From contig PLCS01000002.1 of assembly GCA_003134855.1 (NCBI GenBank), positions 2,658-66,657 of the forward strand: a stretch of DNA of 64,000 bases, read 5' to 3'. How positions within the stretch are numbered: position 1 is the stretch's first letter; every line of letters begins with the position of its first letter. The notes below the pieces were generated by a model that was not told where the DNA came from, made no database searches, and worked only from the letters and a program-made list of their open reading frames with translations. A program made the translations under genes and the position numbers. The DNA is from Acidobacteriaceae bacterium (lineage in GTDB: Bacteria > Acidobacteriota > Terriglobia > Terriglobales > Acidobacteriaceae). This document shows, in pieces, positions 1-27,746 of this stretch.

Positions 1-1405
1 AATGCTGCAGATCGAGTCTCGATCCTGCGTCGACCACCACATAATCGAACTCCTCACACGCGACCTTTAGCAGCTTGTCGACGGCTTCATCGGAGAACTG
101 TGCGGTGGTCAATTCACTGGGCGCCGCGAGTACCGATAGCCCGGAACTATGCCTTATCAACATGGTGGAGAGAAAACTCGCGTCGAGCCGGCTGGAATTC
201 TGAAGAGCGTTCACGGTCGAGTATCGAGGCTTGATACCGAGGTTTATCGCCGCATCACCGAGCGGGAGGTTGAGATCGATCAAGAGGGTTTTCTGTCCTG
301 AATCCTGGGCCAGCGAAACAGCAAAATTGCAGGCCAGGGTAGTGACTCCGGAACCGCCTTTAGCACCGAGAAATACGAGTAACCTGCCGTCGGCCTTTTC
401 CTGTGGGCGGGTCACCGAATGAAGGGCCGATGCCCGAACCAGAGCGTCGGCCATGGCGCCGGGATAGAAGGGCAGGGTGAGAAACTCGCGAGCGCCGACA
501 CGCATGGTTCTGAGCAACAGGTCTGAATCGGCCTGCGCCGAGTAAACCATTGCGATTGCCAAGCCGCGGACGCTGATCGTTTCCACCAGATCGAGGGCGA
601 GTTTCGGATTAGTGTCCAGGTCGACGAGGACTATGTCAAAGTCGCGATTTAGAGTCCGGGGCGCATTTTCGAGATCGGAAGGATAGGACAGGAACTCCTG
701 GATTTTGCCGGCATGGCACTCTTCCAAAGCCCGTAATGCGGCGCTGCGGCGCTGCGCGTCCGGGCTGATGACCGCTATGTACAAGTCGCCTGTGCCAGGG
801 AAGAGAGGATCAGCTATGTCCGTTCCTTTGGCTTTGGTCCGACTTCTGATCATCTCCGCGCCAGGCGCTCCAATATGCGCGCCGGTCTCGGCAGCCTTTT
901 TGTCGCCGTCTCCGGGCTGCTCGTGCTCACCCGCAGCGTAGTCGGTGGAAGAGGACTCCTCGTGGATCGTAGCATCCGCATTTTTCCCGATTGTGATACG
1001 GATACCCTGCTCGGCAAGAGAAGTGTTCACCCTAACGAGTATCTCGCCGCCCAAATCGCGCTCTTCCAACAGTTGGTGAAAATGGCGGATCGCCGCCTCG
1101 TTTGGCGCGGGAGCCACGCCAAGATCGACTCCAACGAAGCTGCGCAGCACGGGCGACTCATAGAGTGCCTCCTCCACGCCGGGGTCCGAGAGATTGAACC
1201 ACTGCTGTACGAAGTAGATTCGCAGCAGGATTGGCAGGCCTACCGAAGGCTGACTGCTGCCTGCTGGTAGATCATGCGACTCCACAAGAGCCAACAACTC
1301 TTCCCATGGCACCACCTGCTCCATCCGGTCGAGAAACAGTTCCCGCTTGCTCTTTCGGGCAAATTTCTCGGAACCCTCCTGTGGCGCCAGTATTTCCTGC
1401 CGCAT
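1..1405 (-). CDS. IS5-transposase-N-terminus / receiver / CpaE(TadZ)-type P-loop ATPase fusion, 3'-truncated by the window edge
   Basis: Hand translation from ATG 1405 (GAGG upstream) is stop-free to base 2. It reads MRQEILAPQEGSEKFARKSKRELFLDRMEQVVPWEELLALVE...LLRIYFVQQWFNLSDPGVEEALYESPVLRSFVGVDLG...DATIH, then a receiver-like region (FDIVLVDLD...MRVGAREFLTLP), then a deviant Walker A (FLGAKGGSGVTT), LLIDLNLPLGD and FDYVVVDAG. In-frame internal ATG at 853. Confidence 0.85.
   Translation of the reverse strand, partial: MRQEILAPQEGSEKFARKSKRELFLDRMEQVVPWEELLALVESHDLPAGSSQPSVGLPILLRIYFVQQWFNLSDPGVEEALYESPVLRSFVGVDLGVAPAPNEAAIRHFHQLLEERDLGGEILVRVNTSLAEQGIRITIGKNADATIHEESSSTDYAAGEHEQPGDGDKKAAETGAHIGAPGAEMIRSRTKAKGTDIADPLFPGTGDLYIAVISPDAQRRSAALRALEECHAGKIQEFLSYPSDLENAPRTLNRDFDIVLVDLDTNPKLALDLVETISVRGLAIAMVYSAQADSDLLLRTMRVGAREFLTLPFYPGAMADALVRASALHSVTRPQEKADGRLLVFLGAKGGSGVTTLACNFAVSLAQDSGQKTLLIDLNLPLGDAAINLGIKPRYSTVNALQNSSRLDASFLSTMLIRHSSGLSVLAAPSELTTAQFSDEAVDKLLKVACEEFDYVVVDAGSRLDLQH
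869..1405 (-). mobile_element. IS5-family transposase N-terminal remnant forming the first ~179 codons of the fusion ORF
   Basis: IS5-type motifs KRELFL..MEQVVPW, LRIYF.QQWFNLSDP.VEEALY.S, DAT (first catalytic Asp) and AHIG. The rest of the DDE domain and terminal IRs were not seen. Confidence 0.8.
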
Positions 1406-1871
1406 CGACCTCGCCCTCTGCCAGCTATTCTATCCAAGATGGGCGTGAAACGGAGTGTCAAAATGTCATCCAGTCTGAATGAGGGCTTGATTTTGAACTG
1501 AGGGGCAGCACTGAAAGGAATTTTGGACGGACAGTAGGGGAGCTTGCGGGCAGCGAATCCTCAGGAAGAGATCCTCAATTGGACGGCGACAAGTCGTCGG
1601 CCACATGTCGCCTCCGGGACAAAGCTTGCGTTGATTTTGCAGCACTTGCGGCACCCTTCAGCTGCGCTCAGGGCAGGTGAAAAAAGTCGCGCCCTTTCAA
1701 AACTAATAAGAGAATCCTTAAGTCAAATGGATACCCATCCTGTACCATAAGGCGATTTTCACTCTTGTCCAACACAACAGGAGCCTGACTGCGGTCTGCC
1801 TCCATGCCGTCCAGTGTCAGCGAACCGGCGGGCGGTTGAGGCGCTTGGCGATTCCTTTGTTCAATCTCTCC

Positions 1872-1899
1872 TAACCGCAACCGGCGAAATGCTGTCTAA
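1872..1899 (+). promoter_or_regulatory. Candidate ECF-type promoter TAACC-N17-GTCTAA; would give a leaderless mRNA at ATG 1908
   Basis: AAC -35 core and GTCTAA -10 at ECF spacing, 8 nt before ATG 1908, which has no SD. Single occurrence. Confidence 0.35.
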
Positions 1900-2480
1900 T
1901 GGTTCGCATGGGCAAGAACGATCACGCCGCGGTCCGGGCCATTCTGGCTGGAGACAAAGAGGCCTATGGGGCGCTGGTCGTGCGCCATAGCCACAGCCTT
2001 TTTCGGGTTGCATTCCGGATCACCGGCAATGAAGCCGATGCAGAGGATGTGGTGCAGGAGGCGTTTCTGCGCGGGTATCAAAAGCTGGAGAGCTTTGAGG
2101 CCCGGTCGAGTTTTGGCACATGGATTTACCGCATCGCGGTGCGGGGCGCACTGGACAGAATCAGCCGCCGCCCGGCAGTCGATTCCAGCCGAGTGGCCGG
2201 GTCGGCCGATCCGGAGCAGGACGAGGTGCAGGTGGCGGATACCGCCGTCCGGCCTGACCGGCTGCTGCTGAGCGGCGAGATTGGAGCGCTGCTTCAAAGT
2301 GCGCTGCAACGCCTGACACCGGCGGAGCGAACGGCCTTTGTGCTGCGACACATGGAAGATTGCACCGCGGAAGAGATTGCCGCCGCGCTGGGCATCGCGC
2401 CCAATGCGGCTAAGCAGGCGGTCTTTCGCGCCGTGAAGAAACTGCGGATACGATTGGCTGCCTTGAGGGTGAAGCGATGA
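1899..2480 (+). CDS. ECF sigma-70 factor (start 1899 or 1908)
   Basis: Region 2 (AEDVVQEAFLR, SFGTWIYRIA) and region 4 (LTPAERTAFVLRHMED..AEEIAAALG..AKQAVFRA). Confidence 0.93.
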   Translation: MVRMGKNDHAAVRAILAGDKEAYGALVVRHSHSLFRVAFRITGNEADAEDVVQEAFLRGYQKLESFEARSSFGTWIYRIAVRGALDRISRRPAVDSSRVAGSADPEQDEVQVADTAVRPDRLLLSGEIGALLQSALQRLTPAERTAFVLRHMEDCTAEEIAAALGIAPNAAKQAVFRAVKKLRIRLAALRVKR

Positions 2481-3256
2481 AGCACTTGAATGAAGAGGAA
2501 ATGACCGAGCAGTACTACAAGCAGGGCAAAGCCCACGCCAGGCGACACCTTGAAGCTTGCGCGGAGTGCGCCGAGGATTTTGCGGCGTTCAAGAGCGATC
2601 TCGATGCGATGCAATCCGCAGAGCTTCCGGCCCGGGATGCCGCGTATGGCGAGCGCGTTTGGCGGTCGATTGCTCCCTGTCTGCCCGTATATGAAGCGCG
2701 CAAGCGGAGCTGGCTGCGCAGCGGCGCATGGAGAGGCCTGAGTTATGCCTCCGCCTGCGCGGTGCTGGTTGCGGGCGCATTCATTGCGGGGCGCGTGTGG
2801 GAGCACATGCAGATACGGACAACGGCAGGCGCCAATCCTACCGCGATCCCGCAAAAAGCAACGCCTCCTCAGCAACGGCTTGTCGTCGTCGTATTGAGCG
2901 ACCATCTGGAGCGCTCGGAGCGGCTGCTGGTCGAGTTGAAGCACGCCGACGCCGGCAGCGAGGAGATGGTCTCTCCGCTGCGCGACGAAGCGCGCAGTCT
3001 TCTGACGGCCAATCGCGTCTGCCGCCGGAATGCGGAGAAGAATGACGATCCGGCTCTGGCTGCGGCTCTGGCTCGCCTGGATCATCTGCTCGTCGAATTG
3101 GCCAACCACCAGGGTGGATTGAACGCCGCGGCTCTGGCTCGCCTGCAAGAGGAAATGAACTCGGACAGCTTGCTCTTTGAAGTGCGCGTCTTGCGCTCCA
3201 GGATTCCGGATCAACAGCCGGCCGCCAACAAACGGCCGATTGGAGGCACGATATGA
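2477..3256 (+). CDS. Zinc-binding (ZAS-type) transmembrane anti-sigma factor
   Basis: HLEACAEC (HxxxCxxC), one TM segment (LSYASACAVLVAGAFIAG), ATGA overlap with the sigma gene. Confidence 0.8.
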   Translation: MKHLNEEEMTEQYYKQGKAHARRHLEACAECAEDFAAFKSDLDAMQSAELPARDAAYGERVWRSIAPCLPVYEARKRSWLRSGAWRGLSYASACAVLVAGAFIAGRVWEHMQIRTTAGANPTAIPQKATPPQQRLVVVVLSDHLERSERLLVELKHADAGSEEMVSPLRDEARSLLTANRVCRRNAEKNDDPALAAALARLDHLLVELANHQGGLNAAALARLQEEMNSDSLLFEVRVLRSRIPDQQPAANKRPIGGTI

Positions 3257-5697
3257 AAATCAAAGCCATGCTATATTCCGCGCCGCTCGGCGTCTTGCTG
3301 TGCGCGCCTACCGCCGGCTTTGCGCAGTTCACACAGGGGCAGAGCTTTTCCGGGGGCATTGCGACGCCGGGAATCGATGCCGCCCTGATTGCGACCAGTT
3401 CGCCGGAAAGCATCCTCTATGCGCAGGGAGCGAGCGCCCTCAACGAAGGCCGCTGGGCGAAAGCGGAGTCGATCTTCGCGTCGGTTGCTGACCAGAAGGG
3501 CGAGCACGCCGATGGCGCTCTCTATTGGAAGGCCTATGCCGAGAACAAGCAGGGGCGCACTCAGCCCGCGCTGGATACCTGCATTGCGCTGGGCCGCGAT
3601 TATCCCAAGAGCCGCTGGATCGAGGAGTGCGGCGCTCTGGAGATCGAGATTCGCGCGAAGAGCAATCAGCCCGTCCAGCCGCACGACAACGACAGCGACG
3701 ACGTGAAGCTGCTGGCGCTCAACGACCTGCTGCGCCGCGACGAGGCCGCCGGCCTGGAGCAGATTCAGGAGATTCTGAATGGCGATTCTTCGGAAAAACT
3801 TTTAAAAGGTGTGCAGTTTCTTCTCGGGCATCATTATTCGGATGCCACCTATGCGCAGATTGTACGTATCAGCCGCGTTGAGGGAGATGTGCGGATTGAG
3901 CGGGGCCCGGAGGCGGAGCGGAGCACGGGAGCCAGCTGGGAGAAGGCCGCTCCCGGCCTGCCGCTGGAGACCGGTTTCAACCTGGTGACCGGCGCGGGGC
4001 GCGCGGTGGTCGAATTCGAAGACGCTTCGAACCTCTATCTGGCCGAGAACTCGGTGCTCGCCTTCAACGATCTGCATACCACGGAAGGCGTTCCTTACAG
4101 CGCGATGGCGCTGCTCAGCGGCACCGTCTCACTCCATCTTCGCCCCGATATCGCCGGCGAATGGTTTTATCTGAAGACCCCCACGGACACCTTCGCCGCC
4201 AAGTATCGCGACAAGGTTGACGTGCGCATCAGCAGTTATCTGGATGGAATGGCAATGACGCCGCTGCCCGGCGGTGAGCTTCATATTATCGGGTTCTCGC
4301 CGCAGGATCTGGCCATCGGCCAGACACTTTTCTTTCGCAATGGCGGCCGCGTCACAGAAGCCGTCCCCGGCGATCCCGGCGCATTTGCCGAGTGGGATCA
4401 CTGGGTGGAAAACCTCGTCAACCAGCGATCGGCGGCCATGGAAGCGATGATGAAGGCCTCGGGATTGACGCAGCCCATCCCCGGACTGGCGGAGATGGAG
4501 GGAGAGGGAAAATTCTTTGATTGCGCGCCCTATGGCACCTGCTGGGAGCCGAATGACGCCTTCGCGCGCGAGCAGGAGAGCAACCTTCAACCCGAGGCGC
4601 AGCCGCCTGCCGGTGATGCCTCCTCGCATCAGGCAACGACGACGGGGTATGACTCCGCCGCGTCCATGGAACCGCTTGGCTATTCCGAGTTCTTTCCCTG
4701 CTATCCTCTCAACTCTTCCGGATACAACTTGTATTGGGGAGACGATTCCGGCATGGTGAGGACCATCGATTATTCCGATGCGTTGAACCCATATTCTGAT
4801 GATTTGAACCCATCGTCTTTCCCATACTATTGGGCCGTCTGCCACGCTGGTGGCTGGATTCACCGGGGGCATCGTTACGTTTGGGTTGCAGGCCACAAGC
4901 GGCATCATAAGGGCGCCGGCCACTGGGTCAAGAGCGGGCACAAGACTGCCTTCGTCCCGATCCATCCCTACGATGCCAAAGGCCGGCCCCCGATCAACCG
5001 CAAGGAAAAGGTCTTTGTCGTGAACAACAGAAAAGGCTTGGCGATGGAGCGCGCAAGACTCGATCCAGCCCTCCCCGTCCAGCTGCTTGATGGGCCCCCC
5101 AAGGAGTTCAACAAGGCATTCTATCCCGCGCTCCCCCACGCGGAGGCTCCGTCGATGACCGCGCTTGCGATGAAGGATGCGCTCTTCGGGATCAATGGAG
5201 AGCATGCCAGGACGGCGGGCATCCCGCTGAGCTTCGACCATAAGTCGCAGAGCTTCACGATGGCCAGGCAGGTGATGCAGGGTGACAAGAGAGTGACCAT
5301 CGCCGTGCCAATGAACAACGGCAGTGGTAATCTCCAGTCGCGGGCTGATCACTTTAGCGGGGCCAGCGGCGGCAATCGCGGCAGCGGCTACAGCGGCGGA
5401 GATTATCGCGGCGGCTTCAACGGTGGAGAATATCGCGGCGGCGGAGGCTCGGGAGGCAGCTATCACGGTAGCGGGGCCAGCAGCGGCTCCAGTGGCGGAG
5501 GCTCGCGCGGCGGATACCATGGCGGTGGGGGCGGCAATTCCGGAGGCGGCGGATACCACGGTGGAGGCGGCAATTCCGGCGGTGGCGGCTCCAGCGGTGG
5601 CGGCTCCCATGGCGGAGGTGGCGGTGGCAGTTCCAGCGGCGGTGGTGGGAGTTCCAGCGGCGGTGGCAGTTCCAGCGGCGGCGGTGGGCACCGCTAA
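3253..5697 (+). CDS. Exported TPR/HEAT-like + FecR-like protein with Gly-rich low-complexity tail
   Basis: Signal peptide (MKIKAMLY...AGFAQ); TPR-like helices (ALYWKAYAENKQG); HEAT-like VKLLALNDLL; FecR-like IVRISRVEGDV...LETGFNLVTGAGRAVVEFEDAS; aromatic-rich segment; G/S/R/Y tail. ATGA-coupled to the upstream gene. Confidence 0.8.
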   Translation: MKIKAMLYSAPLGVLLCAPTAGFAQFTQGQSFSGGIATPGIDAALIATSSPESILYAQGASALNEGRWAKAESIFASVADQKGEHADGALYWKAYAENKQGRTQPALDTCIALGRDYPKSRWIEECGALEIEIRAKSNQPVQPHDNDSDDVKLLALNDLLRRDEAAGLEQIQEILNGDSSEKLLKGVQFLLGHHYSDATYAQIVRISRVEGDVRIERGPEAERSTGASWEKAAPGLPLETGFNLVTGAGRAVVEFEDASNLYLAENSVLAFNDLHTTEGVPYSAMALLSGTVSLHLRPDIAGEWFYLKTPTDTFAAKYRDKVDVRISSYLDGMAMTPLPGGELHIIGFSPQDLAIGQTLFFRNGGRVTEAVPGDPGAFAEWDHWVENLVNQRSAAMEAMMKASGLTQPIPGLAEMEGEGKFFDCAPYGTCWEPNDAFAREQESNLQPEAQPPAGDASSHQATTTGYDSAASMEPLGYSEFFPCYPLNSSGYNLYWGDDSGMVRTIDYSDALNPYSDDLNPSSFPYYWAVCHAGGWIHRGHRYVWVAGHKRHHKGAGHWVKSGHKTAFVPIHPYDAKGRPPINRKEKVFVVNNRKGLAMERARLDPALPVQLLDGPPKEFNKAFYPALPHAEAPSMTALAMKDALFGINGEHARTAGIPLSFDHKSQSFTMARQVMQGDKRVTIAVPMNNGSGNLQSRADHFSGASGGNRGSGYSGGDYRGGFNGGEYRGGGGSGGSYHGSGASSGSSGGGSRGGYHGGGGGNSGGGGYHGGGGNSGGGGSSGGGSHGGGGGGSSSGGGGSSSGGGSSSGGGGHR
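5341..5694 (+). repeat. Gly-rich coding repeats (GGYHGGGG(G)NSGGG x2, SSGGG x4, YRGG x2)
   Basis: Repeats ggcggatacca(t/c)gg...ggcggcaattccgg and (agt)tccagcggcgg(t/c)gg are visible in the DNA. Confidence 0.85.
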
Positions 5698-10404: not shown

Positions 10405-12039
10405 TTACTTCGGCAACTGGGTTGCATCCCATCCGCCGCCGAGGGCGCGGACTAATCCTACGCTGGAGACGAACTGGCGGGTTTGGAGATCGACCGCGGC
10501 GCGCTGGTTCTGGAGCAGAGCGGCTTCCGCGGTGAGGACTTCAAGGTAACTTGTGACGCCGCCCTGGTAGCGCTGGCTGGAGAGATCGCGGGAGTGCTGG
10601 GCCGAGGCGACGGCCTTCTGCTCAACGGCTGACTCCGCCTCAAGAATTCTCAGGCCGGAGAGCTGGTCTTCGACGTCGTTGAAGGCGGCGAGAACCACGC
10701 TGCGGTAGCCCGCGGCCTGGGCTTCGTAGCTGTGGCGGGCCTGGTTGGTGAGGGCGTGACGCCGGCCGGCGTCGAAGAGCAGCTCCGTGGCTTGCGCTCC
10801 CAGGCTCCATAGCGCGCTCGGGCCTTGAATCCAGGTACCGACGCTCATGCTCTCAAAGCCGCCTGTGCCATTCAGAGTGATGGTGGGATAGAAGGCGCTC
10901 GTGGCAATGCCGATCTGGACGTTGGCGGCGGCGGCGCGGCGCTCGGCGGCGGCGATGTCGGGACGGCGTTCGAGCAGTTGCGAAGGCACGCCAACAGGAA
11001 CCTTGGGCAGAGGCAGGTCGAGCGGCGAAAACGGAATACTGAAGGCGGAAAGATTGAGGTTGGCGATGGTCCCGATGGCGTGCTCGTACTGGGCGCGGGC
11101 CACGCCAAGATCGACCAGTTGCGCGCGCACGGTTTCCAGTTGCGTGCGGGCCTGGGCAACGTCCACTTCGGTGCCGATGCCGCCGGCAAGACGGCGCTGG
11201 GTGAGGTCGAGCTGATCCTGGAGGTCGGCGATGGTGACGGCGAGCAGCCTGGTCTGGGCGTCGAGGCCGCGCAGTTGCAGGTAGTCGGCGGCCAGCTCGG
11301 CATGAAGGCTGAGGTCAATGTTCTCGTTGTCGGCGGCGCTGGCCTGAGCACTGGAACGGGCGGCTTCGACGGTGCGGCGGATGCGGCCCCAGAAGTCCGG
11401 CTCCCAACTGGCCTGACCGGAGAGCGAAAAGTCGTTGTACGTCGTAGGCTTGCCGGGCGCGTAGGAGGGTCCGTTTTGCGAGACGTTGTTGCGCGAGAGA
11501 GAAGGCCCCGCCGATAGCGTGGGATAGAGCGCGGCGCGGGCTACCGTGATCTGATCGCGGGCGGCGAGGTAGGTTTCCAGCGCCTGGCGCAGGGTCTGGT
11601 TGTTGGCTTCGATGCGCTCTTCGAGCTGGTTGAGCTGCGGATCCTGGTAGATCTCCCACCATTTGCCGCGGAGCAGGCCGTCGGAGGGCGAGGCGGGCTG
11701 CCAAGCGCCTCCGGCTGGGGCGGGCGGCGGCGTGACCGTGGATGCGCCGGTCTCTTTGTAGGCCGGCGGGGCGTCGTAGGCGGGGCGGTTGTAGTTGGGG
11801 CCTACGGGCTTGCAGGCGGTGAGGATAGTGAGGGCGAAGAGGCCGACGAAAAGAGGGCGGGTCGAGGTTCGTGGTTTCCCACCCTTTCGCCAGAAGAAAG
11901 GCGAAAGGATGGGGCACGGGGCTTTTGTTTGGCGGTTTCGCAAAAAACAAAAGCAGGTCCTTCGACTTCGCTGCGCTCCGCTCAGGATGACAGTGTATGG
12001 TGACGCAATCCTTTGGGGCCGGATCGAAGGCATGATCAT
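10405..12039 (-). CDS. NodT/TolC-family outer-membrane efflux lipoprotein with a repeat-derived N-terminal extension
   Basis: Lipobox LTAC, WWEIYQDPQLNQL, SWEPDFWGRIRR, PSQLLERRPDIAAAER, LVRALGGGW. ATGA overlap with the MFP gene. Confidence 0.92.
   Translation of the reverse strand: MIMPSIRPQRIASPYTVILSGAQRSRRTCFCFLRNRQTKAPCPILSPFFWRKGGKPRTSTRPLFVGLFALTILTACKPVGPNYNRPAYDAPPAYKETGASTVTPPPAPAGGAWQPASPSDGLLRGKWWEIYQDPQLNQLEERIEANNQTLRQALETYLAARDQITVARAALYPTLSAGPSLSRNNVSQNGPSYAPGKPTTYNDFSLSGQASWEPDFWGRIRRTVEAARSSAQASAADNENIDLSLHAELAADYLQLRGLDAQTRLLAVTIADLQDQLDLTQRRLAGGIGTEVDVAQARTQLETVRAQLVDLGVARAQYEHAIGTIANLNLSAFSIPFSPLDLPLPKVPVGVPSQLLERRPDIAAAERRAAAANVQIGIATSAFYPTITLNGTGGFESMSVGTWIQGPSALWSLGAQATELLFDAGRRHALTNQARHSYEAQAAGYRSVVLAAFNDVEDQLSGLRILEAESAVEQKAVASAQHSRDLSSQRYQGGVTSYLEVLTAEAALLQNQRAAVDLQTRQFVSSVGLVRALGGGWDATQLPK
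11878..11917 (-). repeat. REP-like hairpin inside the OMF CDS
   Basis: Minus strand GTGC-CCCATCCTTTCGCC-TTTCTTCT-GGCGAAAGGGTGGG. Confidence 0.8.
11953..11992 (-). repeat. Second palindromic repeat type inside the OMF CDS
   Basis: Minus strand TGTCATCCTGAGCGGAGCGCAGCGAAGTCGAAGGACCTGC; recognised as a widespread intergenic palindromic repeat. A degenerate relative lies at 1655-1678. Confidence 0.7.
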
Positions 12040-13247
12040 TTGCCTCCCGCGTTGGTTTGGCCGGCAGGGCTCACCACCCGAATCGTTTCGCCTTCGATGA
12101 GGGAGTCGGGCGGGTCCTGGATCACCTGGTCGGCGGGGCCGAGGCCGGTGACGATCTGCACGTTGGCTCCGTCATCCTCGCCGATGACCACGGGAATCAG
12201 GTGGGCGACGCTGCCGTTGACCACGCCCACGCGCAGCCCCTCCTTGCGGAAGATGAGCGCGGCGGCGGGCACGATGAAGGTGGGGCCGGCGGGCGGCGTT
12301 TTGAAGTGGACCTGGGTGAGCGAGCCGGGCAGCAGTTCACCGGCGCTGTTGTTGACGTCGATCTCCACGAGGAGGGTGCGGCTGGCCGGGTCGATGGCGT
12401 CGGCGGTGCGGACCAGCGTGCCCTGGTAGATTTTTCCGGGGTGCTCGGCGAAGGTGAGGTCGATGGTTGAGCCGCGCTTGACGTTCGCGGAAAAGGCCTG
12501 CGGCAGATTGGCGTAAACGCGCAGGGTCTGGATGGCCTGGAGGCGAAAGAGTTCCTTGCCCGCGCCGGGGTCGATGAGCTGGCCAGTATCGACGTTGCGG
12601 GCGGTAACGACACCGTCGAAGGGGGCGTAGACCTTCTCGAAGGATTGCAGTTCGCGGAGGCGCTCGACGTTGGCCTGCGCGGATTTGACGGCTGCCGCGG
12701 TGGCCGCGGCCTGGTTGACGAAGGTGTCGGTGTCCTGGCGGGAGACGGCGTTGGAGGCGACGAGGCCGGTATAGCGCTCGGCCTGGATGCGGGCGTTGTT
12801 GGCGTTGGCCTGAGCGGTATTCAGGTCGGCCTGGGCCTGGGCTAGTTGCTGATCCACTTCGGGGGTGGCGATCTCGGCCAGCAGATCGCCCTTCTTCACA
12901 CGCGCGCCGATGTCCGAGGTCCAGCGGGTGAGGTAGCCGGAGGTTCGGGCGTAGATGGGCGAATCGGTGTAGGCGGTCACGTTGCCGGGCAGCACAAAGC
13001 TCGACAACGGTGCGCCGGCTTTGGGGGTGGCAACGATGACCGTGGGAGCAGCCAGCTCGCTGGTGGTATTGGCCAGCACTTTATCGGCATGATGGCGGCG
13101 CAGAATGCCGTAACCGGCCAGAGCGCCCGCAACGAGGACGACGATAGCCACGGCCACGAGAGCCTTGCGTGGCGAGATGGCCGCTTGCTCGGGCGCGGAT
13201 TCGTGGTCGAAATTCGGCTGCTGGTTCGGATTGTGTTCGTTGCTCAT
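12036..13247 (-). CDS. RND periplasmic adaptor (membrane fusion protein)
   Basis: N-terminal TM, IYARTSGYL...DIGARVKKGDLLAEI, APFDGVVTARNVD.G, SRTLLVEI. Confidence 0.93.
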   Translation of the reverse strand: MSNEHNPNQQPNFDHESAPEQAAISPRKALVAVAIVVLVAGALAGYGILRRHHADKVLANTTSELAAPTVIVATPKAGAPLSSFVLPGNVTAYTDSPIYARTSGYLTRWTSDIGARVKKGDLLAEIATPEVDQQLAQAQADLNTAQANANNARIQAERYTGLVASNAVSRQDTDTFVNQAAATAAAVKSAQANVERLRELQSFEKVYAPFDGVVTARNVDTGQLIDPGAGKELFRLQAIQTLRVYANLPQAFSANVKRGSTIDLTFAEHPGKIYQGTLVRTADAIDPASRTLLVEIDVNNSAGELLPGSLTQVHFKTPPAGPTFIVPAAALIFRKEGLRVGVVNGSVAHLIPVVIGEDDGANVQIVTGLGPADQVIQDPPDSLIEGETIRVVSPAGQTNAGGK

Positions 13248-13253: not shown

Positions 13254-16200
13254 CTACTCCGATACTTCGTCAAACTCGTCCGTTGTTCCGGCCATCTGAA
13301 TGCCGGTAGCTGTTTGCCGGCGGCCTTCCAGCCAGCCGTGAACCAAAGAGAAAAATGCGGGCACAAAGAAGAGCGTAGCGACGGTGGCCACCAGCAGCCC
13401 GCCAATCACGGCGCGGCCCAGCGGGGCGTTCTGCTCGCCGCCGTCGCCCAGGCCCAGTGCCATCGGCGCCATGCCGAGAATCATCGCCAGCGCGGTCATC
13501 AACACCGGGCGCAGGCGGACAAAGCCGGCGCTGAGCGCGGCGCGGCGGGCGTCGCCCACCAGAATTTCTAACTGCTCGCGGGCAAAGCTGACGACAAGAA
13601 TCGAGTTCGCCGTGGCCACGCCCATACACATGATGGCGCCGGTGAGCGCCGGCACGCTGAGGCGCGTATTGGTGAGAAAGAGGAACCAGACGATGCCGGC
13701 CAAAGCCGCCGGCAGCGCCGCGATGATGATGAAGGGATCAAGCCAGGACTGGAAATTGACAACGATGAGCAGGTAAACCAGCAGGATGGAAAACGCCAGG
13801 CCGCCGAGCAGGCCGATGTAGGACTTCTTCATCGTCTCGCTCTGGCCGCGCAGGTCAAAGTGCGAGCCGCGGGGCAGATCGCCGTTCTTCTCGTGGAGGG
13901 CGATTTTTTCTTCGACGGCGCGGGTAACGGTTCCCAGGTCGGTTCCATCGACGTTGGCAAAGATGTCGAGGACCGGCTGAATATCATAGTGGCTCACCGT
14001 GCCCATCTCGGAGCCTGGCGTGATGGAGGCCAGGCTGCCCAGCACTTGAACCGGGGGCTGCGCGCCGGGCGCTCCGGCAGCAGCCGAGGAGCCGCTGGCC
14101 AGCCGGGCGGCAGAGTTGCCGGGGACGGGCAGGCTCTGTAGCGCGGCCAGCGAGTTGACGCCATACTGCGGTGCCTGGATCGCCACGTTGTAGGTGACGC
14201 CGTTCTTGGGATCGAGGAAGAAGCTGGGGCTGGTCTGGAAGCTGCCGCTCAGGGCCAGCAGCAGACTGGTCGCCACGTCCTTCTGCGTCAGGCCGATGGA
14301 CTGGGCGCGGGTGCGGTCCACGTCCACCGTCAACTTGGGAAGGTCGAAGGGCTGCTGAATACGCACGTCGGCTGCGCCCGGAATGTGGCGGACCTCGTCG
14401 GCCATGCGTTCGGCCAGGGCGCGGTTGCCGTTGAGATTCGGGCCGACAATCTGGAGGTCGATGGGCGCGGAGAGGCCGAAGTTGAGAATCTGGGTCACGA
14501 TGTCCACTGGCAGCACGTAAAAAGTGACGCCGGGATACTGGCGGGCGAGCACGCCGCGCAAATGCTCAACGTACGCCGCCGTCGGATGGTGCTCCCTGGT
14601 CAACTGCACCTGGATGTCGGCGTCGGCCGGGCCGATGGGCGCGGAGGTCGAGTAAGAGAGGTTGAGTCCGGAATTGGGCAGGCCGATGTTATCGACGATG
14701 GAGACGACCTCGCTTGCGGGAACATTTTGCCGGATGGTCGAGTCGATGTGGTCGCAGAGAGCAGCCGTCTCCTCGATGCGCGTGCCGGTGCGGGCGCGGA
14801 CGTGAATCTTGAACTGACCGGAGTCCACCGAGGGGAAGAAGTCCTGGCCCAGAAATGGCGCAAGTCCCAACGAGCCGACAGCGAAGAGCAGGAAGAGAAT
14901 CAGAAAGACCGCCGCGTTGTCCACGCACAAAGTGAGCAGGCGCAGATAGCCGTGGCGGAAATTCTCAAAGCCGGCCTCAAAACCCTGTTGAAAGCGGATG
15001 AAAGGGTTGCGGCTGTTGCGCTTCCTTTCGGTCTCCGCATCGTCGTGCTCCTTGAGCAGGTACTTGGCCATGGTGGGCACCAGCGTGCGGGAGAGAAAGT
15101 AGCTGGCCAGCATGGCGAAGACCACCGCCTCGGCCATGGGCACGAAGAGGTACCTGGCCACGCCGCTCAAAAAGAACATGGGCACGAAGACGATGCAGAT
15201 GGCGAGAGTGGAGACCAGGGCCGGGACGGCGATCTGCGCCGAGCCGTCGAGGATGGATTGCTCCAGCTCCTTGCTGCCTTCCAGATTGCGGTTGATGTTT
15301 TCGATGGCGACGGTGGCGTCATCGACGAGGATGCCGACGGCTAGCGCAAAGCCGCCCAGGGTCATGATATTGATGGTCTCGTGCAGCATCGCGAGGATGC
15401 TGAGCGAGCAGAGAATGGAGAGCGGAATGGAGACCGCGATGATGACCGTGGAGCGCCAACTGCCCAGGAAGACCAGGATCATGATGGCGGTGAGGCAGGC
15501 GGCGATGACGGCCTCGCTGACCACGCCGTCGATGGCTCCACGCACGAAGATCGACTGGTCGGAGAGAGTATTGATCTGTAACTGCGGCGGCAACTGGCCT
15601 TTGATGAACTCCAGCTTGGCGCGAACGCCGCTGATGATGTCCAGCGTAGAGGCCGAACCGATCTTCATCACGCTCATCAGAATGGCGCGGCTGCCGTCCA
15701 CGCGCACAATGTTGGTCTGGGGAGGATTGCCATCGCGCACGTGGGCCACGTCGCGGATATAGAGGACCGCGCCGTTGACCGCCTTGATGGGCAGGTTGTT
15801 CAGCTCATCGATGATTTGCGGGGATGAGTTGGTTTCGATCGCGTACTCGAAGCGGTCGATCTTCATGGTGCCGGAGGGCGCGATAATATTCTGCGCGGAG
15901 ATGGCGTTGACTACATCGACCGGTGAAAGCCCCTTGGCCTGCAAGGCCGGCAGGTCCAGGTCCACCTGCACCTGGCGCTGCTTGCCGCCATAGGGAAAGG
16001 GCGTGAATGCGCCCTCGATGGTGGCCAACTGGACGCGGATATTGTTTGTGGCCTGATCGAACAACTGCTGTTCATCGAGGCCCTGGCCGGAGAGTCCCAA
16101 TTGCAGGATAGGTACGCTGGAGGCGTTGTACTGGATAATGAAGGGCGGCGTGGTGCCCGGCGGCAGGGCGCGCAGCATCACCTGGTTGACGGCAGTCACC

Positions 16201-16523
16201 TGGGCCACGGCGTTGCCGATATCCACGTGCGGCTGAAAGAAGATCTTGATGAGGCCGGTGCTGTTGAGCGATTGCGACTCGATATGCTCGATGTCGTTGA
16301 CCGTGGAGGTCATCACGCGCTCGCTGGGAGTCACGATGCGGCTGGCCATCTCCTGCGCCGAGAGGCCAGTGTAGCCCCAGATCACCGTCACCACGGGAAT
16401 GTCGATGTTGGGAAAGATGTCCGTAGGCATCGTCTCGATGCTGAAGACGCCGAGAATCAGAACCAAGAGCGCAAAGACGACGAATGTATAAGGCCGCCGC
16501 AGCGCAAGCCGGACAATCCACAT
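13254..16523 (-). CDS. RND efflux permease (AcrB/AcrD/AcrF superfamily)
   Basis: 1089 aa; GILVDDATVAIENI (TM4 DD), ANSILVVSFA, RLRPVLMTALAMILGM.PMAL. Confidence 0.95.
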   Translation of the reverse strand: MWIVRLALRRPYTFVVFALLVLILGVFSIETMPTDIFPNIDIPVVTVIWGYTGLSAQEMASRIVTPSERVMTSTVNDIEHIESQSLNSTGLIKIFFQPHVDIGNAVAQVTAVNQVMLRALPPGTTPPFIIQYNASSVPILQLGLSGQGLDEQQLFDQATNNIRVQLATIEGAFTPFPYGGKQRQVQVDLDLPALQAKGLSPVDVVNAISAQNIIAPSGTMKIDRFEYAIETNSSPQIIDELNNLPIKAVNGAVLYIRDVAHVRDGNPPQTNIVRVDGSRAILMSVMKIGSASTLDIISGVRAKLEFIKGQLPPQLQINTLSDQSIFVRGAIDGVVSEAVIAACLTAIMILVFLGSWRSTVIIAVSIPLSILCSLSILAMLHETINIMTLGGFALAVGILVDDATVAIENINRNLEGSKELEQSILDGSAQIAVPALVSTLAICIVFVPMFFLSGVARYLFVPMAEAVVFAMLASYFLSRTLVPTMAKYLLKEHDDAETERKRNSRNPFIRFQQGFEAGFENFRHGYLRLLTLCVDNAAVFLILFLLFAVGSLGLAPFLGQDFFPSVDSGQFKIHVRARTGTRIEETAALCDHIDSTIRQNVPASEVVSIVDNIGLPNSGLNLSYSTSAPIGPADADIQVQLTREHHPTAAYVEHLRGVLARQYPGVTFYVLPVDIVTQILNFGLSAPIDLQIVGPNLNGNRALAERMADEVRHIPGAADVRIQQPFDLPKLTVDVDRTRAQSIGLTQKDVATSLLLALSGSFQTSPSFFLDPKNGVTYNVAIQAPQYGVNSLAALQSLPVPGNSAARLASGSSAAAGAPGAQPPVQVLGSLASITPGSEMGTVSHYDIQPVLDIFANVDGTDLGTVTRAVEEKIALHEKNGDLPRGSHFDLRGQSETMKKSYIGLLGGLAFSILLVYLLIVVNFQSWLDPFIIIAALPAALAGIVWFLFLTNTRLSVPALTGAIMCMGVATANSILVVSFAREQLEILVGDARRAALSAGFVRLRPVLMTALAMILGMAPMALGLGDGGEQNAPLGRAVIGGLLVATVATLFFVPAFFSLVHGWLEGRRQTATGIQMAGTTDEFDEVSE

Positions 16524-16577
16524 AAGGCAGGTTCTCGCTCCTGGGCCGGGCTGCTCGCGACCGGAACGGCTCGACTA

Positions 16578-16688
16578 CAGTAATTTCAGGGTTGCTGTAA
16601 TTGAGCCGATGACCTCAAGTGGATTTTTCCTCAAGAAAAAGCCACCTTCGAGAATCTTCGCTACGCTACATTAACCCTGAAATTACTC
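16578..16688. mobile_element. Candidate 111-bp MITE with 15-bp terminal inverted repeats and TA flanks
   Basis: AGTAATTTCAGGGTT (16579-93) and AACCCTGAAATTACT (16673-87) are perfect reverse complements; TA at 16576-77 and 16689-90. Confidence 0.5.
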
Positions 16689-17245
16689 TAGCGCCCTTGT
16701 CCGGGTGACCGGCTCATCGAGTTTCTGGAGCGGACGGCGCTCAACGCCTAGCTCCGTTCCAACATTCTATTCAAAATACAATCTTAGTCGAAGTCGCTTG
16801 CGAAAGAGGCGCGTGCAGGAAAAGGGGGTTCCGCGCGCTGCTTTTATGACGGATGAGCGGGAGTAAAGGATGCGGATCGCTTGGGTTGGCCATCATCGTC
16901 TGGCGCGTGATGGCCTGGAGAGGCAAGTAAGGTCAAACAGGCCACGGGTAAACTCAAGGTTCATTATACCGTCAAACTAGATTAAGCTATCGCGCGGGCC
17001 GCAAGCGCCCAGGGGGAGCCCGATTCCCGTACAATGGATTCGTCTTCCATTCATAGGCGGAGTGTATGCGCGCCGGGAAGGACGCGCGCTCCCGCAAGAC
17101 AGGCTGGCTTATCGGACGAAACCTTTCCGGAAACTCAAGCGTCCGTAGAAACGAATGCGGGTAGTTTGTGCTCTGCCCGAAAGGATCACATTGGCGCCCT
17201 TTTTTGCGGGCATTCACTCAAGAGAAAACGACGGGAATTGACACC

Positions 17246-18634
17246 ATGTCCATAGAAGGCGCTCCGGAGTCCTACCTGGCCGCAGACAGCATTGAGCCAC
17301 AACCCCCCGCTCACAAGAATTCCCGGGTGCGCTTTATCGTGTACCTGGTGCTGGTCACCGCTTTGGGGCTGATTATTTGGCAAATTTACAAGAACCAGAA
17401 GCAAAACGCGGCCAACAGCGCCAGCCAGGCGGCGGCGCTGATGGGCCGGCCGGTTCCGGTGCAAGTGGCAGCGGCCGCCGAGATGCCGATGCCGATCTTC
17501 CTGACCGCGCTGGGCACAGTGACGCCTTACATGAGCGTTACAGTCAAGGCGCGAGTCAGTGGCGAGCTGGAGCCGGTGAAGTTCACCGAGGGCCAGCAGG
17601 TGAGGCAGGGCGAGACGATCCTGGTGATCGACCCCCGGCCTTACAAGGCCGCGCTGGACCAGGCCAAGGGCACCCTGCTGCACGATCAGGCGCTGCTGAA
17701 GAACGCCCAGGCGGAGTTCGCCCGCTACAAGGCGCTCTTTGACGCAGGCGTGGTCTCCAAGGAGGCCATGGAAGCCGATGAGGCTGCGCAGGGCCAGTAC
17801 CAGGGCGCCATCGCCTCGGATAAGGCGGCCATCGAGGCGGCTCAGCTGCAACTCGACTGGTGCACCATCCATTCGCCCATTAGCGGCAAGATCGGCCTGC
17901 GCCTAGTGGACCCCGGCAATATCATTACCGCCAACACCACCAACCTGGTCGTCATCAACCAATATCAGCCTATCGCCGTTTACTTTACCCTGCCTGAGGA
18001 TGAGCTTCCCCAGGTGCTGGGCAAGCTGGGGGCGGAAAAGCGCCTGTCCGTGGAGGCCTACGATCAAGGCGATACGCAGAAGCTGGCCACGGGCACTCTG
18101 CTGACAGCCGATAACCAGATCGATACGACTACTGGAACCGCTAAGCTGAAGGCGGTCTTCGACAACCAGGACCAGGCGCTCTTTCCCAACCAGTTTGTCA
18201 ACATTCATCTGGTGATGGAAGAGCGGCCCAACGCGCTGGTGGTGCCGTCGGCGGCCATCCAGTCCGGCAACCAGGGCTCGTTTGTGTGGGTGGTCGATAC
18301 GGACGCTGCCAAGAAGAGTTCGACGGCCCGAATGCAGCCCGTGAAGGTGGCTTTGGCCGAAGGACAGGTGACCATCCTGGACAGCGGCTTGCAACCGGGC
18401 CAGCAGGTGGTGGTGGACGGCGCGGACCGTCTGCGCCCCGGACAGATCGTACTCGCCAGTGCAGCCCGCCAGCGGGGCGGACAGCCGGCCGGACAGGCGG
18501 CGGCAGGCCAGGGCGCGGGTCAGAGTGGAGGCGGTCCATTCGCAGCTCCCAGAGCGGCCTCCGGACAGGGCCGGCCCGGCGCGCCGGCGGGCGACAAAGA
18601 TAACGGCAATCACCAGAAGAAGGAGCAGCAGTGA
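17246..18634 (+). CDS. mdtA: MdtA-like RND membrane fusion protein
   Basis: [62 protein letters not shown]. Start set to ATG 17246. Confidence 0.9.
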
Positions 18635-21600
18635 GCCTGAGTCCTTCCCGGCCATTCATTCTGCGCCCGGTAGCGACCTCGCTGCTGATGGCGGCGATTC
18701 TGCTGGCTGGCTTCGTGGGCTACGAGCAGTTGCCGGTCTCCGCCCTGCCCGAGGTGGATTACCCGATCATCCAGGTGCTCACCTTCTATCCCGGCGCCGG
18801 GCCGGAGGTGATGGCCTCGTCGGTGACCGCGCCACTGGAGCGGCAGTTCGGGCAGATGCCGGGACTGAAGCAGATGACCTCGGTCAGCAGCGGCGGCGGC
18901 TCGGTCATTACGCTGGAGTTTAATCTCGACGAGAACATCGACGTGGCCGAGCAGGAGGTGCAGGCGGCCATCAACGCGGGCAACAGCTTTTTGCCCGCCG
19001 ACCTGCCCAACCCGCCGATCTACAGCAAGGTGAACCCGGCCGACGCGCCGATCATGACGCTGGCGCTGACGTCGAATTCTCTGCCGCTGGACAAGATTGA
19101 GGACGCGGCCGACACCAACCTGGCGCAGAAGATCTCCCAGGTCACCGGCGTGGGAATGGTTTCCATCGCCGGCGGACAGAAGCCCTCGGTGCGCATCCAG
19201 GCCAATCCGACGCAGTTGGCCGCTTACAACCTGAGCCTGGAGGACCTGCGCGTCGCGCTCGCGGCGGCCAACGTGGATCAGGCCAAGGGCACGCTGAACG
19301 GCAACCGCCAGTCGTACACCATCGGCGCCAACGACCAGTTGCTGGCCAGCAGCGATTACAAGCCGGTGATTGTGGCCTACCGCAACGGGGCCGCGGTGCG
19401 CACCTCCGATGTGGCTACGATTGTCGATGCCGCGGAGAACTCCCAGCAGGCCGCGTGGATGGATCGCCAGCCGGCGGTCATCGTCAACATTCAGCGCCAG
19501 CCTGGCGCCAATATCATCGCCGTGGTGGATCGCATCAAGAAGCTGCTGCCGCAGTTGCAGGCCAGTCTGCCGGCCACCGTGCAGGTGAAGGTGCTCACCG
19601 ACCGCACCGTCACCATTCGCTCCTCGGTGCAGGACGTGGAATTTGAGCTGATGCTCACCGTCGCCCTGGTGGTGATGGTGATCTTCCTCTTTCTGCGCAA
19701 TCTGGCGGCGACGATCATTCCCTCGGTCGCGGTGCCGCTTTCCATTGTGGGCACCTTCGGCGTGATGTACCTGCTGGGTTACTCGCTGAACAACCTGACA
19801 CTGATGGCGCTCACCATCTCCACCGGCTTCGTGGTGGACGACGCCATCGTGATGATCGAGAATATCTCGCGCTTCATTGAAGAAGGGATGAGCCCGATGA
19901 AGGCGGCGCTCAAGGGCAGCGAGCAGATCGGCTTCACCATCATGTCGCTGACGGTTTCGCTGATTGCCGTGCTGATCCCGCTGCTCTTCATGAGCGACGT
20001 GGTGGGCCGGCTCTTCCGCGAGTTCGCCATCACGCTGGCGGTCACCATCCTGGTCTCGGCCTTCGTCTCGCTGACACTGACGCCGATGATGTGCTCGCGC
20101 ATTCTTCAGGACAAGTCGGTCGCCAAACAGACGCGCTTCTACTATTGGTCGGAGAAGGTCTTCAACTCCGTCATCGCCTGGTACGGGCGAACGCTGACGG
20201 TGGTTTTGCGCTATCGCTTCATCACGCTGCTGGTCACCATCGGCACGCTGGTGGGCACGCTGCTGCTCTATGTAGTGATCCCCAAGGGCTTCTTCCCGGT
20301 GCAGGATACGGGCGTGATCCTGGGCATCAGCGAAGCGCCGCAGACGGTCAGCTTCACCTCGATGGCCGAGCGCCAGCAGAAACTTGTGGACGTTGTGCTC
20401 CAGGACCCCGCCGTCGATAACATCTCGTCGTTCATCGGCGTGGACGGAACCAACACCACGCTGAATTCGGGGCGCATCCAAATCACCCTCAAGCCGCTGG
20501 CCGTGCGCAAAATCTCAGCCACCGAGGTGATTCAGCGCTTGCAGCCAAGAATCACCGGCATCGAGGGCATTCAGCTCTTCCTGCAGCCGCTGCAAGATCT
20601 GACGGTGGAAGACCGCGTGAGCCGCACTCAGTTCCAGTACTCGCTCGAAGATCCCGACCAGGTGGAGCTGGCTAAATACACCCGACTGATGGTCAATGAG
20701 CTGGGCAAGGAAGCCGTGGTGACCGACGTGGCCAGCGACCTGCAGGACCAGGGCCTGGGCGCGCAGTTAGTCATTGATCGCGACACCGCGGCGCGTCTGG
20801 GCATCGCGATGGCCGATGTGGACAATACGCTCTACGACGCCTTCGGCCAGCGCCAGGTCTCGACCATCTTCACCCAGCTCAACCAGTATCACGTGGTGAT
20901 GGAGGTGGGACCGAGCTTCCAGACCGATCCGTCGACGCTGAACAATCTTTTCGTCAAGTCGGGCAACGGCACTCAAGTTCCGCTCAGCCAGGTGGCCCAC
21001 TGGGAGCAGACGAAGGCGCAACTGGCCATCGGCCACCAGGGCCAATTCCCGTCCACTGTGGTTAGCTTTAATCTGGCGCCGGGCAAGGCGCTGGGCGATG
21101 CGGTCATCGCCGTCAAGAACGTGGAACAGCGCATCCAGATGCCGGTGTCCATCAACGCCAGTTTCCAGGGTACGGCCGCGGCCTTCCAGACCTCGCTCTC
21201 CAACGAGCCGCTGCTGATTCTGGCCGCGCTGATCACCGTTTACATCGTGCTGGGCGTGCTTTATGAGAGTTACATCCACCCCATCACCATCATCTCCTCG
21301 CTGCCTTCGGCGGGCGTGGGCGCGCTGCTTGCGCTGATGATTACGCACACCGAATTCAGCGTGATTGCGCTGATCGGCATCATTCTGCTGATCGGCATTG
21401 TGCAGAAGAACGCCATCATGATGATCGACTTTGCCTTGCAGGCCGAGCGCGGCGAAGGCAAGACGGCCGAAGCCGCCATCTTCCAGGCCTGCCAGTTGCG
21501 ATTCAGGCCGATTCTGATGACCACCATGGCCGCGATGCTGGGCGGTTTGCCGCTCTGGCTGGGCGGCGGCGTGGGCGCCGAACTGCGCAGGCCGCTGGGC

Positions 21601-21756
21601 ATCACCATCGTCGGAGGATTGATCATGTCGCAAGCGCTCACGCTCTATACCGTGCCGGTCATCTACCTTTACTTCGACAAGCTGGCGCAGCGCATGAAGC
21701 CGCGGGAACTGCGGATCAGCAAGGAACAGCAACCGGAAATAGCTTCTAGCCTCTAG
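18631..21756 (+). CDS. mdtB: MdtB-like RND permease
   Basis: [61 protein letters not shown] overlap with mdtA. Confidence 0.92.
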
Positions 21757-21885
21757 CTCCTAGCTTCTAGCTTTTGGCCAAGAGGCTGCTCAACAGTACC
21801 GGGGATTTGGAACGATGTGCAGGCGGAAGAGCCTGTTGAAACATGGGTTTTTAGCTAGCAGCTAGAAGCTAGGAGCTAGAGGCTA
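21747..21885. repeat. 26-bp perfect inverted repeat built from 7-bp tandem units, around an 87-bp spacer
   Basis: TAGCCTCTAGCTCCTAGCTTCTAGCT (21747-72) / AGCTAGAAGCTAGGAGCTAGAGGCTA (21860-85). Confidence 0.9.
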
Positions 21886-21889
21886 AAAG

Positions 21890-24800: not shown

Positions 24801-25042
24801 GCCCCATCATGATGACCACCATGGCCGCGCTCTTCGGCGGATTGCCGCTGGCCATCGGCATGGGCGTGGGCTCGGAGCTGCGCAAGCCGCTGGGCATCAC
24901 CATCGTCGGCGGACTGATTGTCTCGCAGATGCTGACGCTGTTCACTACCCCTGTCGTATACCTCTTCTTCGACCGCCTGCAATGGCGGGTAATGAAGCTG
25001 CACAGGATAGGCACGGAACTGGAAGATGCGCCGGGGGACTGA
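21890..25042 (+). CDS. mdtC: MdtC-like RND permease
   Basis: [48 protein letters not shown]; second permease paralog after mdtB. Confidence 0.92.
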   Translation: MHLSAPFIQRPVATSLLSLALLLAGSVAYSLLPVASLPNVDMPVIGVSAGMPGASPETMASAVATPLERQFGRIAGVNQMTSSSSLGSASVAMQFDINKNIDAAARDVQASINAARSQLPSYLPQNPSYRKANPAEAPILILTLTSDVIPKVQVYDKANSILAQKISQIQGVGQVFVGGSSSPSVRVELNPMQLGANGVGLEAVRQALAGANANRPKGAFQDASHRWQISDNDQIFKASDYAPIIAGYNKQTGAPVRIADLGTVTDSVADIRNAGVSGINTSSGPGQLKDAILIIVFKIPGANVISTVDSVMAEMPRLQAAIPPTIKIDVAVDRTTTIRSSVHDVEISLCISVLLVVLVVFLFLREVWSTIIPSIAVPLSLVGTFGMMYLLGYTIDNLSLMALTIATGFVVDDAIVVIENITRYLEMGMKPYEAAMKGSREIGFTVLSMSLSLIAVFTPILLMGGIVGKLFREFAVTLSVAIAVSLLVSLTATPMLCARFLKSRDESRHGPVYRASERAFNWLHNEYAAGLRWVLRHQFLILCVVIGTIGLNVYLFTIVPFGFFPQQDTGRMGGRTRAAQDISFDAMKVKQHDLAQMVLDDPAILSVTAFVGGGGPGGGSSNVGNMFISLKPLNQRPGRVSADQVVNRLRGKLTSVPGAALILQVQQEFQIGGRGSDAQYQYTLSDENLNELNTWAPQLLTRMRTMPELRDVSTDQQIQGLAANLVIDRDMASRLGISTAVIDQVLYDAFGQREVSTMYTALNQYFVVMEVDPRFQLSPDALNGIFVKSSTGAMVPLSTISHFTQQRTALQVNHQGQYPAITLSFNLAPNVALGDAVTALEKAQREMGMPSTVHPTFQGTAQAFQDSKNNMPWLILAALTAVYIVLGILYESFIHPLTILSTIPPAGVGAVLALMLTGTDLSVIALIGIILLIGIVKKNAIMMIDFALQAEREQGLPPVEAIYQACLLRFRPIMMTTMAALFGGLPLAIGMGVGSELRKPLGITIVGGLIVSQMLTLFTTPVVYLFFDRLQWRVMKLHRIGTELEDAPGD

Positions 25043-25456: not shown

Positions 25457-25554
25457 CCCACCCTAGCGACAAAGACAAGAACGTCGCGAGGGTGGGGCAC
25501 CGAGCTTCATGGTCTCCCACCCTTCGAGCACAGAACGCACGAAGGATGGGGCAC
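25457..25554 (-). repeat. Two tandem REP-like hairpins (25457-25500, 25516-25554)
   Basis: Both read GTGC-CCCA(C/T)CCT...AGGGTGGG on the minus strand, with variable inner stems. Confidence 0.85.
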
Positions 25555-25594
25555 GGAGCATTTACGGGAGGGTCAAAAAACCGCACTGAGCCGT

Positions 25595-27711: not shown

Positions 27712-27746
27712 CCCGTCCTTCGCAAAATACGCGAAGGACGGGGCAC
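27712..27746 (-). repeat. REP-like hairpin
   Basis: CCCGTCCTTCGC-AAAATAC-GCGAAGGACGGG-GCAC, perfect 12-bp stem. Confidence 0.85.

Follow-up and report, generated by a model that had tools for sequence, protein, structure and literature searches.

The stretch of DNA from a peat bacterium of the Acidobacteriaceae considered here (64,000 nucleotides of contig PLCS01000002.1, assembly GCA_003134855.1; referred to as the window) carries on its minus strand an efflux operon whose third gene encodes an outer membrane efflux lipoprotein (OMF) with a long N-terminal extension, in which dispersed repeats are embedded. The operon begins with an RND permease gene (13254..16523), taken from the list of open reading frames (ORFs) and recognized by RND permease profiles (E = 9e-156), and continues with the gene of a periplasmic adaptor (MFP; 12036..13247), which scores 209 bits against the NCBIfam model TIGR01730 (cut-off 94.9) and ends in the stop codon TGA at 12038-12036. 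The OMF ORF follows at 12039-10405. Its mature part (10405..11814) is an intact NodT-family protein, scoring 377.8 bits against TIGR01845 (cut-off 210.05) and covering positions 2-460 of the 460 profile positions with residues 66-534; the RND and MFP genes directly upstream on the same strand provide the gene context of this family. Since the alignment starts at residue 66, about 65 N-terminal residues of the OMF lie outside the family model. The OMF body contains no frameshifts and is 71-92% identical to its orthologues in 80 species.

The ORF translates as M-I-MPSIRPQRIASPYTVILSGAQRSRRTCFCFLRNRQTKAPCPILSPFFWRKGGKPRTSTRP-LFVGLFALTIL-TAC-KPVGPNY... The hydrophobic core LFVGLFALTIL, the sole peak of the hydrophobicity profile, and the lipobox LTAC are encoded at 11812..11853 (minus strand), with the codon of the lipobox Cys at 11814-11812; this Cys, followed by KPV, is aligned in all 80 orthologous loci. 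Depending on the ATG considered, 73-75 residues precede the Cys, and about 60 of these lie ahead of the core, as is seen in both the translation and the hydrophobicity profile and as had been claimed in an earlier note on this DNA. The arrangement corresponds to that of a Sec substrate processed by signal peptidase II (SPII), i.e. a basic n-region, a core within the expected range (about 7-22 residues) and a lipobox of the form [LVI][ASTVI][GAS]C. The extension holds 12 Lys/Arg, no Asp/Glu and three Cys, so that its description as an Arg/Lys/Cys-rich peptide was accurate, and the net charge of the n-region is +12. A Tat signal via the motif SRRTCF was considered and rejected, the motif being about 35 residues away from the hydrophobic core. 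Around 45 of the 73 residues preceding the Cys are encoded by two repeat elements, B and A, together with an AT-rich hairpin between them.

Element A (~11860..11926, minus strand), delimited by means of inverted repeat I1, a family alignment and contig depth, is a stem-loop with conserved flanks and encodes T36-T58 (TKAPCPILSPFFWRKGGKPRTST). Its 14-bp stem is formed by the arms 11878-11891 and 11900-11913 (palindrome 11878-11913; -31.3 kcal/mol, z = -6.19 vs. shuffled sequences). The 5' flank GGTTGAGGTTCGTGGTTT is common to the family, whose conserved ends are ...GGTTTCCCACCC and GGRTGGGGCACC, and the conserved flank encodes KPRTST directly preceding the hydrophobic core; the extent of 11878-11917 given previously was thus too short. 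When 20 copies are aligned, hardly any variation is seen in the outer stem CCCACCC/GGRTGGG and in the tail GGGGCAC; the inner stem varies between copies yet remains paired, with compensatory changes in six of 11 pairs. Four further copies are present in the window (25457-25501, 25516-25555, 27712-27746 and 43354-43450), all of them intergenic, and many others in related genomes. At least 124 exact matches to the element A flank were found in metagenome contigs; among the 124 copies listed, no preference for one reading frame was seen, with 150 or more open codons following in the three frames 16, 18 and 12 times. Element A therefore does not act as a coding module in general, the OMF junction being a special case. 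In two unrelated metagenomic contigs, L185 (minus strand, near 223) and L166 (near 1327), GGKPRT... stands in frame with the apparent signal peptide of another gene, with no ATG between the element A flank and that signal peptide (example GGKPRTTTYVPFLKTIALPLFFVAPLAAPAQP); these may be further repeat-extended signal peptides.

Element B (~11949..11993, minus strand), the ends of which were taken from contig break points in RNA and DNA runs, consists of the box GTCATCCTGAGCG, a minimal centre and the box AGTCGAAGGACCTGC, and encodes T14-C29 (TVILSGAQRSRRTCFC). In the family, the conserved boxes GTCATCCTGAGCG ... AGTCGAAGGAYCTGC flank a variable centre that usually forms a hairpin; the window copy has no central hairpin and is unstructured (z = +0.87 vs. 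shuffled sequence). Of the two repeats that the earlier note had described as palindromic, element A is so and this copy of element B is not. A hammerhead or k-turn reading of the element B boxes was discarded, since the core nucleotides deviate from the hammerhead consensus and no covariance model matched. An AT-rich hairpin absent from the earlier note is situated between B and A (inverted repeat I2, 11921..11954, minus strand); in it, GCTTTTGTTT and AAACAAAAGC pair over 10 bp (-13.8 kcal/mol, z = -4.27).

Both elements are true dispersed repeats, as had been proposed. In peat metagenomes, contig depth reaches 230-2109 over element A and 281-4078 over element B vs. about 7-12 in the flanks, i.e. 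30-500 times the flanking depth, and contigs break at the element ends, which shows that A and B have very high copy numbers in the community. Metatranscriptome contigs break at the same ends, the signal over the repeats stemming from other copies in the community. The whole junction is covered by perfectly matching, overlapping contigs of independent peat metagenome runs and is therefore no misassembly. The element A copy at 43354-43450 (minus strand) harbours in its loop a nested hairpin (ACCCCAACGACGAAGACCTGTCGTTGGGGACCCC) unrelated to the first, and element B variants in metatranscriptome contigs contain a central hairpin (CTCACCCCATCGACTAAGACCTGTCGATGGGGACCCCG) similar to this nested one; the repeat families thus seem to insert into each other's loops. 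An Rfam search of the whole window at the gathering threshold gave no match, and a permissive search of 11750-12100 yielded nothing beyond noise (E above 1), such as hits to miRNA models and to a CRISPR direct repeat. A protein search with the 47-residue extension peptide, a query too short for that database, retrieved one 75-aa hypothetical protein.

A comparison of the 5' ends of orthologous OMF genes, named in the earlier note as a check, was carried out on 80 loci, one per species, from genomes of Terracidiphilus and other Acidobacteriaceae. As only the mature OMF served as query, the sample of loci is blind to the N-terminus. In each locus the MFP stop and the lipobox Cys were located and the distance between them was taken as the gap, gaps above 140 nt being classed as long. 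The gap ranges from 5 to 732 nt. In 46 of the 80 species it does not exceed 140 nt and contains little or no insert; species without inserts possess ordinary lipoprotein signal peptides of 25-36 residues starting at the conserved ATG (e.g. MPSPRVAEKLVAFNSQRIVSALCLAGLILFTGC). Among the 34 long gaps, 30 distinct architectures can be told apart, with many repeat families placed between the ATG and the core, e.g. VILSGAQRSRRTC, GAPSFALFAKGGKPR and DHREAVANSLPLSK; further peptides of this kind are KGHDFSRA...ALAPEG, CHPE...SRRICGC and VSILRPGKPQ.

The OMF frame is free of stops over the whole gap, from the ATG to the Cys, in 78 of the 80 loci. Among the long gaps it is open in 32 of 34, vs. 8 and 6 for the other two sense frames and 4, 8 and 4 for the antisense frames. 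Counted by architecture, 28 of 30 are open, and for this reason shared descent is held not to explain the result. An untranslated spacer would keep the frame one-third of the time and would contain stops as the other frames do; as the data differ from this expectation, they argue for translation, and the proposal that the repeats lie in frame within the signal peptide and are translated receives strong support from the comparison of sequences. All 14 in-frame stops are confined to two loci, L006 (732 nt) and L010 (420 nt), where an apparent new start (GTG and ATG, respectively) is found near the hydrophobic core, partly in repeat-derived sequence; both inserts are much larger.

The B-spacer-A architecture of the window persists, in frame, in orthologues with an identity of only 77-80%. 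Relatives with mature proteins 84-92% identical carry different modules, which indicates a fast turnover at the junction. Across species element A is read there in all three frames, as ...KGGKPRTST, as GCPTLAASLFLRLGW and as ...ARVGN... (L032); GCPTLAASLFLRLGW abuts the hydrophobic core or forms part of it in three loci (L001, L016 and L010), and some orthologues hold an ATG within the repeat (RMGGKPR). Elsewhere in related loci, repeat copies are found chiefly between genes or 3' of the OMF gene, in several species just 3' of it, and all element A copies located in the gap share their orientation relative to transcription with those just 3' of the OMF gene.

The start of translation is marked by a Shine-Dalgarno (SD) sequence, GGGAGG, located within the last MFP codons (12043..12048, minus strand) and conserved across the orthologous loci; an SD-like 4-mer occurs at this position in 77 of 78 of them (consensus gcGGGAGGcaagTAGccATG). 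In nearly all 80 loci an ATG in frame with the lipobox Cys is found 1-3 nt past the MFP stop. In the window this conserved start is the ATG at 12031..12033 (minus strand), 2 nt after the stop and 9 nt from GGGAGG, with which the gene-caller product P0001 (542 aa) begins. The earlier note had coupled the OMF start to the MFP stop by an ATGA overlap. This overlap exists (ATG at 12037..12039, minus strand); however, its ATG is present in only five loci, the window included, and is separated from GGGAGG by only 3 nt, a spacing that is too short, so that it is probably not the start. The canonical in-frame starts ahead of the lipobox are these two ATGs (codons 1 and 3, as had been noted) and a TTG at 11941..11943 (minus strand), 43 codons before the Cys. 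It is inferred from the comparison that OMF translation starts at ATG 12033 and reads through the repeats.

The anatomy of the junction, the repeat status of A and B and the conservation of frame and freedom from stops across species are direct observations. As to their origin, it is considered quite probable that the repeats were inserted in the n-region of a signal peptide that is removed, were kept in frame and are translated, while being close to neutral. Dispersed stem-loop repeats of Acidobacteriaceae, normally situated between genes, would have settled in the sole stretch of dispensable DNA that the MFP-OMF junction offers. Because the SD lies within the last MFP codons and the ATG 2 nt past the stop, there is no spacer, and inserts fall in the n-region; because OMF synthesis would rely on this single SD/ATG pair, only inserts or combinations of inserts that keep the frame and lack stops would survive. 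From the window allele a signal peptide of 73 residues would result, made up of a basic n-region (about 60 residues), an 11-residue core and the LTAC lipobox. Once the protein is exported by Sec and lipidated, SPII would cut off everything ahead of Cys74; with cleavage at the lipobox the mature channel would be unchanged, and the insert could be tolerated.

Several points weigh against this explanation. The loci are related by descent and not fully independent, though the 30 architectures are distinct. A test for selection on charge gave 0.111 per residue in frame vs. 0.103 in the other five frames (p = 0.30); since charge is not frame-specific, the basic character is a property of the repeats and no evidence of selection on the peptide. 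The usual length of about 15-35 residues before the Cys of Sec/SPII substrates is far exceeded, with 73 in the window and a median of 40 and a maximum of 153 in the 78 orthologues. In one metatranscriptome run, contigs 100% identical to the OMF body give weak evidence for expression; these contigs may contain DNA, and none bridges the junction. Finally, both the start codon and the long precursor are deduced from the comparison of sequences.

The repeats are not mere passengers, as the element A flank supplies Lys/Arg residues next to the hydrophobic core. On this basis a further idea can be put forward tentatively, namely that the junction acts as a workshop in which selfish repeats are exapted as basic residues, as parts of the core (GCPTLAASLFLRLGW) or as a start codon (RMGGKPR). 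The hairpins might then set the ratio of OMF to pump, and the signal peptides of 60-150 residues might be functional and in part adaptive; this broader scenario is possible and is given limited credence.

A different and rather unlikely possibility is that the repeats are kept for a putative role at the RNA level, i.e. in relative mRNA stability, processing or translation rate, with their in-frame state being the price of a coding location. The 221-nt junction is indeed predicted to be strongly folded (-81.9 kcal/mol, z = -4.2 vs. shuffled sequence), the element A stem is maintained by the compensatory changes described above, and the element A copies of the gap are co-oriented, with respect to transcription, with those just 3' of the OMF gene; in addition, repeats occupy the junction in about 40% of the species (34/80, gaps >140 nt) in 30 architectures. 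However, the 46 species with little or no insert and an ordinary signal peptide imply that the insert is not required, which also weakens the earlier note's idea that the hairpins could tune OMF translation or mRNA stability, and insert content and length vary without a pattern. The conservation of the stem belongs to the whole repeat family at all its sites and not to the OMF locus, and hairpins at this place would be melted by the translating ribosome.

The extension could also be untranslated, with a start at TTG 11943 or at a non-canonical codon near the core and the long ORF as a by-product of GC-rich DNA. The earlier note had named such a downstream start as the outcome that would overturn its claim. 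Signal peptides as long as this are highly uncommon, a run of sixty open codons is not rare by chance in DNA of 59% GC, the ATG within the repeat (RMGGKPR...) of some orthologues would yield a signal peptide of normal length, and L006 and L010 clearly use an internal start. These arguments are outweighed by the 32 of 34 long-insert loci that are in frame and stop-free, vs. 4-8 of 34 per other frame, and by the SD and ATG at the MFP stop, which are conserved at any insert length. TTG 11943 is itself judged an unlikely start: it has no SD at a usable distance, the nearest purine-rich sequence, GAAGGA, ending 16 nt upstream. Past this TTG there is no in-frame ATG, GTG or TTG until the Cys, and initiation there would still translate element A. 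Moreover, in 13 of the 32 long-insert loci that are open, the region 12-40 codons ahead of the Cys contains no canonical in-frame start. A downstream start is thus disfavoured, and an untranslated extension is regarded as very improbable. That the OMF allele is decaying or poorly exported and the insert a defect awaiting purging, for which the atypical signal peptide and the possible redundancy with a second RND system in the window might be quoted, is hardly credible in view of the full-length mature part without frameshifts and its profile score, the 71-92% identity to orthologues, the B-spacer-A arrangement kept in frame in orthologues of 77-80% identity and the transcript-derived contigs that match the gene exactly.

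Some further repeats are associated with efflux genes of the window or lie elsewhere in it. Just upstream of the RND start (16523), a 25-nt inverted repeat (16575-16599 / 16667-16691; CTACAGTAATTTCAGGGTTGCTGTA / TACATTAACCCTGAAATTACTCTAG; 88% complementary, arms 67 nt apart) might serve the efflux operon as an operator or as a structure of its promoter region. The second RND system (18631-25042, plus strand) consists of two tandem paralogous permease genes in an MdtB/MdtC-like arrangement, with 72-80% nucleotide identity in several blocks spaced 3253-3295 nt. The spacer between these genes (18631-21756 and 21890-25042) is filled by a CTAG-rich 39-nt inverted repeat (CTTCTAGCCTCTAGCTCCTAGCTTCTAGC...) at 21743-21889, whose arms are 69 nt apart and which ends at the ATG of the second gene; unlike the in-frame repeats of the OMF junction, it is packed with TAG triplets. 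At 5348-5690, densely packed tandem repeats (periods of 15-36 nt) encode Gly/Ser and apparently belong to a glycine-rich low-complexity coding region. Tandem repeats of 21 nt, in four copies each, are found at 58147-58244 and 59446-59700, and a direct duplication of 192 nt at 59272-59650.

In-frame palindromic repeats in genes and intragenic repeats of the repetitive extragenic palindromic (REP) type are already known. Three aspects of the OMF junction appear to be new: the inserts lie within a presumably cleaved lipoprotein signal peptide, one junction is reused by many repeat families in dozens of species, and signal peptides with 60-150 residues ahead of the Cys result. The locus can be viewed as a natural mutagenesis of a lipoprotein signal peptide, in which 20-130 extra, unrelated, repeat-derived residues have been placed between start and core in dozens of species and selection has preserved the frame. 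If the precursors are exported, Sec/SPII targeting would accept n-regions far longer and more arbitrary than those assumed by predictors and in textbooks. For genome annotation this means that gene callers and signal-peptide predictors will misplace such starts or overlook the lipoproteins, and that, conversely, many acidobacterial 'hypothetical proteins' are translations of these repeats. Selfish DNA inside genes would be extended from Rickettsia to abundant soil and peat bacteria, with the cleaved leader serving as a safe harbour for it.

Several known systems share individual features with the OMF junction. REP sequences and bacterial interspersed mosaic elements (BIMEs) form hairpins between enterobacterial cistrons, e.g. 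malE-malF, and stabilize the upstream mRNA. Here, too, structured repeats are situated between co-transcribed genes of a transport operon; REP/BIME hairpins reside in untranslated spacers, whereas those at the OMF junction lie inside the reading frame, with no spacer. The extended signal peptide region (ESPR) that autotransporters carry comprises about 25 residues, forms a conserved motif with a signature of its own and is found on Sec substrates of signal peptidase I. It resembles the OMF extension as an N-terminal addition ahead of an otherwise normal n/h/c signal peptide, together with which it is removed; the OMF extension differs in being 20-130 residues long, hypervariable, repeat-derived and attached to a Sec/SPII lipoprotein. 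Compared with miniature inverted-repeat transposable elements, which span 70-300 bp, element A has arms that might pass for terminal inverted repeats; it does not reach 70 bp in length, and no target-site duplication was identified, a near-identical empty site being lacking.

REPs with GTAG/CGTC tags are GC-rich imperfect palindromes of 20-40 bp that occur in high copy number, mainly in extragenic positions or downstream of ORFs and occasionally within genes (Di Nocera et al., 2013; PMC3733652). Intragenic REPs occur in several phyla, and acidobacterial genomes carry repeats associated with tyrosine transposases (PMC3733652). The present elements are likewise short, GC-rich, imperfectly palindromic, abundant and mostly extragenic. 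Element A lacks a GTAG or CGTC tag at either end, the feature that defines the described superfamilies, and no signal-peptide hotspot is described for the REPs of that study (PMC3733652). In the literature searched, no description of a repeat hotspot in a signal peptide was found, the precedents being intragenic REPs and the Rickettsia palindromic elements (RPEs). The latter are inserted in frame within protein-coding genes (Ogata et al., 2000; reviewed in PMC10969869) and offer a close parallel: in both cases dispersed palindromic repeats of several families lie inside ORFs, introduce no stop, keep the frame and leave a retained and apparently functional host gene. Elements A and B are set apart from the RPE families by size and description, not by direct sequence comparison. 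RPEs measure about 100-150 bp, are scattered over many unrelated genes and are retained in the mature protein, whereas the elements of the OMF junction span 45-67 nt and, in dozens of species, have hit a single junction time and again, within a segment that would be cut off from the protein.

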